Below, one piece after another: positions 31,094-64,000 of a stretch of 64,000 nt of DNA (the stretch's first letter is position 1; every line of letters begins with the position of its first letter). Both the position numbers and the translations under genes were made by a program. Source of the stretch: Lama glama (lineage: Eukaryota). Under the pieces are notes generated by a model that saw nothing but the letters and a program-made list of their open reading frames with translations, was not told the origin of the DNA and ran no database searches. Location: assembly GCA_028534125.1 (NCBI GenBank), contig CM052816.1, positions 40,178,001-40,242,000 on the forward strand, given 5' to 3'.

Positions 31094-31906
31094 ATTAAAT
31101 GCTAAAACATCTTCTTACCTAGTACAGGTTCTACTCAAACCGTAAACCACTTAGAAATATATTAAGAATTTGTTCTTTTTGAATTTATTTTCTGGTTTGG
31201 GTACTTTGTGAACAAAATCTTAGAATAAGAACTGTGGTTTATATACATATAACAATAGATATTTTGTTTTGGTTTGACTTCTGGAGTCATTTTAAGTGTT
31301 TTTAATGATAGATAGTTTTGACTTGAGACTGTTGGATATTTTATAGAACATCATTATCACAGACAAATGAACAGACACACTAAAAATACACAATTTTTAA
31401 ATTACTTGATTGCAGTAAATTATAATTTTCCTTCATCAATTCTTTGTTAAAAGCTTATTGGTAAATAAAAGTCAATAGGCAGATTGTATACTTGAATGTT
31501 ACTAATAAATCCAATCTTAAAAGTTAAAAAAAAGTCAATAGGCATTCTAAAAAAATTGCCAGGATGGCTACCATTAACCAAAATCACTTTGCATAAAAGC
31601 AGAAAAATAATCTTTAAAAACTTACCTTTATTTTATAAATCTTTTAGTCTTATCACCTCTTTTTTACTCCTTGTCTTTTTATATGTTACCTGAAATCTAT
31701 CAGTGAAATATTGTCATGAAAACAAGAGCATAAGAATTCTCTGAGAAACTGGAACTTCCAGATAAAGAGTGGTTTGCAGAAAAAATAAACAAAAAGCCCT
31801 AATCCCACTTGACTCTCCAAATCTTTCATGATTTTCAAAAATGATTTTCATCAGAAAACTGAAATAATAGCTCTGTAGTTTAATGGATGAAGTGAAACAA
31901 AAGAGA

Positions 31907-47181: not shown

Positions 47182-48255
47182 TTTATTATTATTTTGTTAA
47201 ATTTTATTTTATTTTATTTATTAAAAAAAATTTTTACTTAAGTACAGTCAGTTACAATGTATCAATTTCTGGTGTACAGCACAATGTCCCAGTCATGCAT
47301 ATACATACATATATTCATTTTCATATCCTTTTTCATTAAAGGTTATTCAAGATATTGATTATAGTTACCTGTGCTATACAGAAGAGACTTTAAAAAAATC
47401 TATTTTTATATATAGTGGCTAACATTTGCAAATATCAAACTCCCAAATTTATCCCTTCCCTCCCCCTTTACCCAGTAACCTTAAGATTGTTTACTATATG
47501 TGCAAGTCTATTTCTGTTTTGTAGTTGAGTTCATTCGTGTCCTCTTTTTTCTTTCTTATTCTCCTTTTTTTTCTCTCAGAATCCACATATGAGTGATATT
47601 ATATGGTATTTTACTTTCTTTTCTGGCTTACTTTACTTAGAATGACAATCTCTGGTTCCATCCATGTTGCTGCAAATGGCATTATTTTATTTTTTTTTTT
47701 ATGGCTGAGTAGTATCCCATTGTATAAATATACCACAATTTCTTTATGCAGTCACCTATAGATGAACATTTAGGTTGCTTTGATGTCTTGGCTATTGTAT
47801 ATAGTGCTGCTGTGAACACTGGAGTACATGTATCTTTTCAAGTTAGAGTTCTCTCCAGATATATACCCAGAAGTGGGATTGCTGGATCATAGGTTAAGTC
47901 TATTTTTAGTTTTTTTCTCCATACTGTTTTCCATAATGGCTGCACAAAACTACATTCCTACCAACAGTGTAAGAGGGTTCCCTTTTCTCCACACCCTCTC
48001 CAGCATTTATCATTCGTGGATTTTTGAATGATGGCCATTCTGACTGGTATGAGGTGATGCCTCGTTGCAGTTTTGATGTGCAGTTCTCTGATAGTGATAT
48101 TGAGCATTTTTTTCATGTGCCTATTGGCCATGTGCATGTCTTCATTGAAGAATTGCTTATTTAGGTCTTCTGCCTATTTGTGGACTGGGTTGTTTGTTTG
48201 TTTTTGTTATTAAGTTGTATGAGCTGTTTATATATTCTGGAAACTAAGCCTTTGT
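47182..48255 (-). mobile_element. L1 3' end (ORF2 end and 3' UTR), lineage-specific, 5'-truncated
   Basis: T-rich tail, then agtacagtcagttacaatg..., catccatgttgctgcaaatggcatt, gtgggattgctggatcata, catttt...tcatgtgcctattggcca. Confidence 0.95.
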
Positions 48256-48783
48256 GTTCTTTCATAACCACGTACCCCTTACATGTGGAATTTCACTTGC
48301 GTTTCTGTTCTATATAAATGAGAGAGGCAAACTGAAGAATTTATTACAGAAAGATTCTTTGTTTAACCTAATAATTTGCTACAGGGCTCTTGAAAAAAAA
48401 AACTGCACTCTCGTTATGTTTAAATTTATTTTAAAACTTTACTTGACATGTCCAAGAGTAATTGTTTAAAGTGAGATGTACTATAATAAATCTTTTAAAA
48501 AAATGTATTCTTTTAGATTGCTTACTAAAATTTTGAAGAAGTAGAAAAATGCAGCACCCTTCTCCCCAGATGTACTGGTCTATTGCTTATATAAACTAGA
48601 CAGCAAAGCTCTAGGCTGAAGATGCCTGCAGGCTGGGGATATATGCCTCACACTTAAACATATGGTGATATTCTCCCAGGTTAAGTCAGGGGAAATTGAA
48701 ATGACTGTTCCCAACAAGTTAAACAGAGGTGTTTGTTGATCTGCTTACCCACTTATTTTTGAATAAGTATGTACTCTATTTCT

Positions 48784-48942
48784 TTTTTTTTTTTGCAACT
48801 CATAGACAAAGCATTTATTTCTCACATAGATAAAGAACTCCTATAATTCCATAAGAGAAAGAAACCAACTCATTAGAAAAATAAGAATGAATGGAATAAG
48901 AATATGAACAAAACATAGATTTTTAAAAATGCAGTTGGTTCC
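48784..48942 (-). other. L1 3'-transduced flank with distal poly(A)
   Basis: Lies between L1 tail (48943-48950) and a second T12 tract (48783-48794); AATAAA (minus) at 48819-48814; inside the TSD. Confidence 0.8.
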
Positions 48943-49333
48943 TTTTTTTTAACATTTTTTATTGATTTATAATCATTTTACAATGTTGTGTCAAATTCCA
49001 GTGTAGAGCACAATTTTTCAGTTATACATGAACATATATGCATTCATTGTCACTTTTTTTCTCTGTGAGCTACCATAAGATCTTGTGTATATTTCCCTGT
49101 GCTATACAGTATAATCTTGTTTGTCTATTCTACAATTTTGAAGTCCTGTCTATCTCTTCCCACCCTCCGCCCCCTTGGCAACCACAAGTTTGTATTCTAT
49201 GTCTATGAGTCTGTTTCTGTTTTGTATTTATGCTTTGTTTGTTTGTTTTTAGATTCCACATATGAGCGATCTCATATGGTATTTTTCTTTCTCTTTCTGG
49301 CTTACTTCACTTAGAATGACATTCTCCAGGAGC
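48943..49333 (-). mobile_element. Young camelid-type L1 3' end, 5'-truncated
   Basis: tttattgatttataatcattttacaatgttgtgtcaaattccagtgtagagcac...ttagaatgacattctccaggagc; TSD ctatttct at 48776-48783 and 49333-49340. Confidence 0.95.
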
Positions 49334-50379
49334 TATTTCTAATATACAAAATATTTCTAAAATATCTTTAAGTGAAAAGAACTGTTAAGACACTTTCAAA
49401 TAATCATTAATAAATTTAAGAATTTTTAGTATTTTTGTGATCTATGAAGCCACAATTACATTCTGAAAATGAATTGTAAAATTCTTCAGGACTCTCTTTT
49501 TTTCTGAAAAGAAGATGTAAATTTGGTAAGGTCATCTACCCTGCGAACAGAGAAGAGTCACTGACACACTGCTCTGAGTCAGTGTGGAAATTTGCCTAGA
49601 AGCAGGGGTTGTGTACTCGTAATTGACCTGCCAGTTTGAAATCTTTCCTTGGCATCAGTGACTTCCTACAGAGTTGAAAATACTGTCCATCTTGAGCTCA
49701 GATAGCATATTTAGCCTGAATCAATATGGTGTACAACATAAAACTCCTAGACGAGTGGAAAAATTATGAATTTTTAATGAAAGAAAAAATAATCTCTAGC
49801 TGTTGGATTCTAAATATTGGATTTAAAATATCTTCACGTATCTCTGAATCATTATTGCCAAGGAATTTCTATTAGTGACGTACATTCTTAGAGAGTAAAT
49901 TTTCATTTCTATGAGAATCATGGACACTTGATCAACTAGTATGATAACTTGTAAGATTTTTGATGCAGAAAAAAAGTAGGCCTGCTATTTTGCTTCAGGC
50001 TGACTCTCTCTGACACCATAAGTTTCCAAACTCTCCTGATGAAATGTGTGCTGCGAAGCTCCTTGCTGCAATGGCAGACATAATTGTGGGTGACTGGCTG
50101 TTTGGAACTCCTCTCTTAATCTATAGCTGTCTTGGTATGTTCCTTCAAGAGAAAATGTTGGGGTCCTCAAGAGTGAATTTCACACCCTTCATATCCTTTC
50201 CTCATTTAAAAATTTTATCTGTGAAATATCTCTGTTCCATAGTGTATGTTTACTATGCCCTACTGTTAGATATTCTTGCAAGATTAATATCTGTAAAACT
50301 ATATATCTGATAACTTTTATTTATGAGTTTTGACCCAGAATTATATTAAAAAATATAAATTGCTTATCTTAGCCCTAGT

Positions 50380-63880: not shown

Positions 63881-63886
63881 AAAATA

Positions 63887-64000
63887 AAATGTGACAATGA
63901 ATATATATATGTTCATGTATAACTGAAAACGGTGCTCTACACTGGAATTTGACGCAACATTGTAAAATGATTATAAATCAATAAAAGTATTAAAAAATAA
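63887..64000 (+). mobile_element. Young camelid-type L1 extreme 3' end (runs off window)
   Basis: gtgacaatgaatatatatatgttcatgtataactgaaaacggtgctctacactggaatttgacgcaacattgtaaaatgattataaatcaataaaa; near-identical to reverse complement of 48951-49053. Confidence 0.95.

Follow-up and report, generated by a model that had tools for sequence, protein, structure and literature searches.

Between positions 48776 and 49340 of the window (the whole 64-kb stretch of DNA that was analysed) lies an insert of ~550 bp, in which a 5'-truncated L1 of ~380-390 bp and an additional 148-bp segment, hereafter the cargo, are enclosed by one perfect direct repeat, both ctatttct 8-mers being identical. Its parts, by increasing coordinate, are as follows.

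48776-48783, plus strand: left copy of the 8-bp target-site duplication (TSD), ctatttct, on the 3' side of the insert, its last T common to the tail
48783-48794, minus strand: outer poly(A) tail A12 (T12 on the plus strand), the putative priming tail of the insertion
48795-48942, minus strand: the 148-bp cargo, putative 3' flank of a source L1, whose plus strand corresponds to an old L1 ORF2 fragment
48814-48819, minus strand: AATAAA of the cargo, 19 nt before A12, the putative poly(A) signal of a read-through RNA
48943-48950, minus strand: inner A8 tract, putative genomic tail of the source L1, with no TSD paired with it
48951-49332, minus strand: 5'-truncated L1 with the last ~27 ORF2 codons in an open frame, the stop codon and the 3' UTR (by translation and alignment)
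48958-48963, minus strand: the L1's own AATAAA, presumably read through
49333-49340, plus strand: right copy of the 8-bp TSD, ctatttct, at the 5' truncation point of the L1
49337-49342, plus strand: TTCT/AA, a nick site of endonuclease-like sequence that departs from TTTT/AA at one base

The initial annotation had described a TSD around a ~390-bp minus-strand L1 with AATAAA and A8, a further 148 bp, and an AATAAA 19 nt before A12, and every one of these parts lies where it had been placed. The endonuclease-like target site that it had proposed is likewise present as the TTCT/AA motif, the L1 endonuclease consensus being TTTT/AA (PMC3219598). At the edges of the insert two small overlaps or gaps have to be kept in mind. 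Base 48783 is counted twice, once in the left repeat copy and once in T12, and alignment to an older L1 of the window starts at ~49326 while the frame stays open as far as 49332, so that 1-6 bases are assigned to neither the L1 nor the right repeat. Hexamers of the form A[A/T]TAAA occur on the minus strand of 48776-49000 only twice, at 48963-48958 and 48819-48814.

Searches of the window returned no Rfam match, and no Pfam family was found in 121 of its 170 stop-free segments of at least 62 aa, a search that short exons would escape (481 stop-free segments reach at least 45 aa). No gene or function appears to be implicated. The right flank of the insert (49341-49900) is represented in public sequencing runs: 18 of the 24 entries listed hold all 56 sampled words, and these come from 7 studies under 4 organism labels. 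Fourteen of these 18 carry a flag marking them as possible sources of the DNA itself, and the other 4 belong to one study; presence of the flank is uninformative on the insert.

The L1 part and its relatives in the window

Two other L1 sequences of the window can be compared with the L1 of the insert. The first is an older 5'-truncated L1 at 47220-48250 on the minus strand, ~1 kb long, with a broken ORF2 end and a 3' UTR. The second is a short copy of the same L1 3' end at 63886-64000 on the plus strand, cut by the window edge. Identity is 91.2% over 114 bp to the second copy (63886-63997) and 71-85% to the older L1. The element had been called young at the outset; its closeness to the second copy relative to the older L1 supports that description in part. 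The pure tails, the perfect repeat and the open ORF2 end make a young L1 plausible, the identities being those to copies in the window. The 3' end of the element appears to be of camelid type.

Chance levels of the insertion hallmarks

The hallmark criteria were picked after the site had been seen. Chance levels were taken from a background consisting of the window minus the insert, which contains 33 T-runs. A repeat of at least 8 bp that abuts a T-run and starts no more than 4 nt from a random point was obtained in a fraction of 0.002 of 20,000 trials, a tail that includes self-matches. When the true right junction was compared with all 33 background T-runs, the best match was 5 bp and none of the 33 gave a longer one. 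Once the position constraint is lifted, 3 of the 33 T-runs have a repeat of at least 8 bp somewhere within the next 600 bp, and the weight therefore rests on the repeat coinciding precisely with the 5' truncation point of the L1.

The remaining hallmarks differ in how often the background produces them. Runs of at least ten T have an expectation of 0.026 per 300 bp, and an AATAAA located 10-30 nt upstream was found for 0.031 of random points and for 2 of the 33 background A-runs. The motif TTCT is followed by A and a purine in 0.11 of background cases, and the nick site is weak by itself. Chance explains the hallmarks poorly.

The cargo and the origin of the insert

According to the initial annotation, the 148 bp are foreign to the young L1 and resemble an old L1 ORF2 fragment in the opposite orientation, and the whole represents a 3' transduction. 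Comparison of the cargo with the older L1 (48050-48300) upholds the first two points: 89 of 133 aligned bases are identical (67%), a score reached by 1 of 1000 shuffles, and under stricter scoring the value is 59, the best of 500 shuffles reaching 45. The similarity covers 48804-48937, almost the entire cargo. Its continuation as old L1 sequence into the right flank was not found, the score there being 26 where shuffles average 32, and in two comparisons 162 of 200 and 13 of 200 shuffles were as good. On the left flank 68 of 200 and 127 of 200 shuffles were as good as the sought continuation, a weak test given that the reference is truncated near the same ORF2 position. Self-comparison of the window gave no match to the cargo beside the 3' end of the older L1, and no second copy of the cargo was found within the 64 kb. 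An exact 28-base pattern from the cargo had no match in metagenome contigs, where single-copy DNA of the host is not expected.

The 5' truncation of the older L1 falls near the ORF2 position at which the cargo starts, the two lying ~550 bp apart in inverted orientation. At 67% identity, this agreement in position looks like a coincidence.

We consider it very probable that the insert is the product of one L1 insertion with a partnered 3' transduction, the support being internal to the site. Five features of its anatomy bear out the transduction proposed initially. The L1 3' end lies inside the insert together with the element's poly(A) signal and A-tract; the 148 bp that follow it on the 3' side are distinct from the tail of the element; a second poly(A) tail, A12, has its signal 19 nt upstream, within the expected 10-30 nt; one 8-bp TSD surrounds L1 and cargo together; and the nick site TTCT/AA is of the endonuclease type. 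For the L1 alone, a TSD was sought at the inner A8 tail and rejected, the best repeat there being 2-3 bp. The order and spacing of all parts count in favour of a transduction, and so does the old-L1 similarity that fills the cargo without continuing into the right flank. The shortness and A/T-richness of the repeat count against it.

What sequence of events could have produced this structure? The source L1 would lie elsewhere in the genome, embedded in antisense orientation within a decayed ORF2 fragment of an old L1. Transcription would have passed the AATAAA of the source element and its genomic A8 and extended 148 nt into the flank, and the RNA would have been cleaved and polyadenylated 19 nt after the cargo AATAAA, the positions being those seen in the insert and the process being established knowledge. 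ORF2p would have nicked the plus strand at TTCT/AA, with priming on the new poly(A) tail, and the tail, the cargo, A8 and ~380 nt of L1 would have been copied before synthesis stopped. Repair would then have left the 8-bp duplication. The hallmarks of these last steps are present at the site, and their presumed order is that of target-primed reverse transcription. The product is a dead ~550-bp insert, most likely neutral for its host, whose cargo would mark the source locus.

The copy of the L1 3' end at 63886-64000 offers an observation of its own in this respect. By eye, the 250 bp before it resemble what we take to be an old L1 ORF2 remnant, and the site may be another young L1 inside an old one, the arrangement proposed for the source locus.

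Another possibility is that the old L1 fragment and T12 are native to the locus, and that a younger L1 inserted alongside them, leaving no TSD or deleting a little of the target, the repeat and the second AATAAA being due to chance. The 148 bp are indeed old repeat DNA of the kind scattered across mammalian genomes, and short A/T-rich repeats are common, as the 3 of 33 T-runs illustrate. An old L1 ORF2 has a few T where T12 begins, so that T12 might be an expansion. Such a history nevertheless requires an L1 lacking a TSD, with 2-3 bp at the inner tail, to have landed by chance such that an 8-bp repeat coincides with its exact 5' end (0.002). It further requires a chance AATAAA at the right spacing (0.03-0.06) and a nick-like site (0.11), and no continuation of old L1 sequence was found on the right. 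We regard a native origin of the fragment as unlikely.

A variant of the transduction itself would have the L1 and the 148-bp unit as one copy of an amplified lineage born of an earlier transduction, in which the antisense piece of old L1 serves as an extended 3' end. This is decidedly improbable. Were it true, the copies would be annotated as unrelated pairs of young and old L1s, inflating the counts of old L1 and concealing a source lineage of this mammal.

An identical outer TSD, signal and tail would also be expected if ORF2p had begun reverse transcription on the poly(A) tail of some unrelated RNA whose end was this antisense piece of old L1 and had then switched template to an L1 RNA at its A-tail, or if a later L1 had landed against the 5' border of an orphan retrocopy of 148 bp. 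Chimeras of L1 with other RNAs are known (PMC13174262), and a non-L1 insert at 31467-31544 suggests that the ends of non-L1 RNAs undergo retroposition in this genome. Against such an origin, no TSD encloses the L1 by itself, and read-through is far commoner, affecting 2.5-8.8% of polymorphic primate L1 insertions (chimpanzee 2.5, macaque 5.5 and orangutan 8.8% in the germline; PMC4862182). In the chimeras with U6, Alu or mRNA described in PMC13174262, a foreign part and L1 likewise share one TSD and a poly(A) tail, but there the foreign RNA occupies the 5' side of the L1, the reverse of the order seen here, where the cargo stands 3' of it and behind the inner A-tract. A 5' chimera of this type was rejected for the present insert, in which no more than 1-6 bases separate the 5' end of the L1 from a TSD copy. 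Template switching or a two-step insertion is, in our estimation, very improbable.

Derivation of the cargo from the neighbouring older L1 (47220-48250) as a local inverted copy, through twin priming or inverted duplication, is hardly credible: the cargo does match the 5' end of that element, ~550 bp away and inverted, but 67% identity (89/133) is far under that of a direct copy, and on that ground this origin was rejected; moreover, the two overlap in the same ORF2 coordinates instead of occupying the adjoining ones that twin priming yields. The insert also does not qualify as a twin-primed (5'-inverted) L1, in which the inverted piece derives from that very L1 and stands within the TSD on the 5' side of the forward part; its antisense piece is an old diverged ORF2 fragment located 3' of the inner tail.

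Relation to described transductions

L1 3' transduction is a well-documented class in human, in other primates and in dog, and its mechanism is textbook. In human tumours ~25% of L1 insertions are reported to carry 3' sequence; partnered transductions have two poly(A) tails in 72%, a poly(A) signal precedes 274 of 349 transduction end points by 10-30 bp, and the median length of a somatic partnered transduction is 445 bp (PMC13009371). Reported TSDs span 6-17 bp (PMC3219598). With the partnered L1 3' transductions described for human somatic and germline insertions in PMC13009371, for the primate germline in PMC4862182 and for human and chimpanzee assemblies in PMC3024322, the insert shares a 5'-truncated L1, an inner A-tract and a second poly(A) tail, a short flank ending 10-30 nt after AATAAA, an enclosing TSD, an endonuclease-type site and a total of a few hundred bases. 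It differs from them in its non-primate host and in being known from the insertion site alone.

How often the source of a transduction can be recognized has varied between these studies. A comparison of human and chimpanzee covered 78 putative transductions among truncated L1s: for 42 of them the source could be placed without ambiguity in both genomes, and 13 were twin-primed or disrupted elements; a confirmed transduction was defined there by a second copy of the cargo at the source locus together with an empty orthologous site (PMC3024322). Among non-human primates, donors are described as mostly not seen, with a method (TIGER) that demanded unique cargo (mean matches <=3; PMC4862182). The present cargo differs from these cases in being an old repeat, of a kind that a uniqueness filter may miss.

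A close parallel outside primates is provided by the canine LINE-1_Cf 3' transductions, which are mostly 'parentless', likewise come from a germline, non-primate assembly and have been used as tags for source elements (PMC7980453). In that report, 17 of 18 transduced sequences map to places without an annotated adjoining L1. The canine cases are dimorphic between two assemblies and their cargo was mapped elsewhere, whereas here a single assembly site is read. Taken with the mostly unseen donors of primates, the canine figure implies that finding the 148 bp elsewhere with no L1 beside them would be compatible with transduction.

If confirmed, the insert would represent a clean germline case of L1 read-through in a camelid. 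Our literature search, with most subscription papers outside its coverage, found no study of transduction in camelids, and a camelid repeat survey, as far as its accessible portion goes, names the process once and in general terms (PMC8605555). Its cargo could be used to find the source L1 and to score presence or absence of the insertion. The case also points to a blind spot, in that cargo consisting of old repeats can escape both masking and uniqueness filters.

The non-L1 insert of the window mentioned above, at 31467-31544 on the plus strand, is bounded by two identical 15-bp repeats in direct orientation (31467-31481 and 31530-31544). The 48 bp between them hold an AATAAA (31504-31509) 16 nt before an A8 run, and the site is of the form T/AAAA. 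By eye, it is unlike the L1 3' ends of the window, and it looks like an orphan transduction of very small size or an mRNA retrocopy truncated to an extreme degree.
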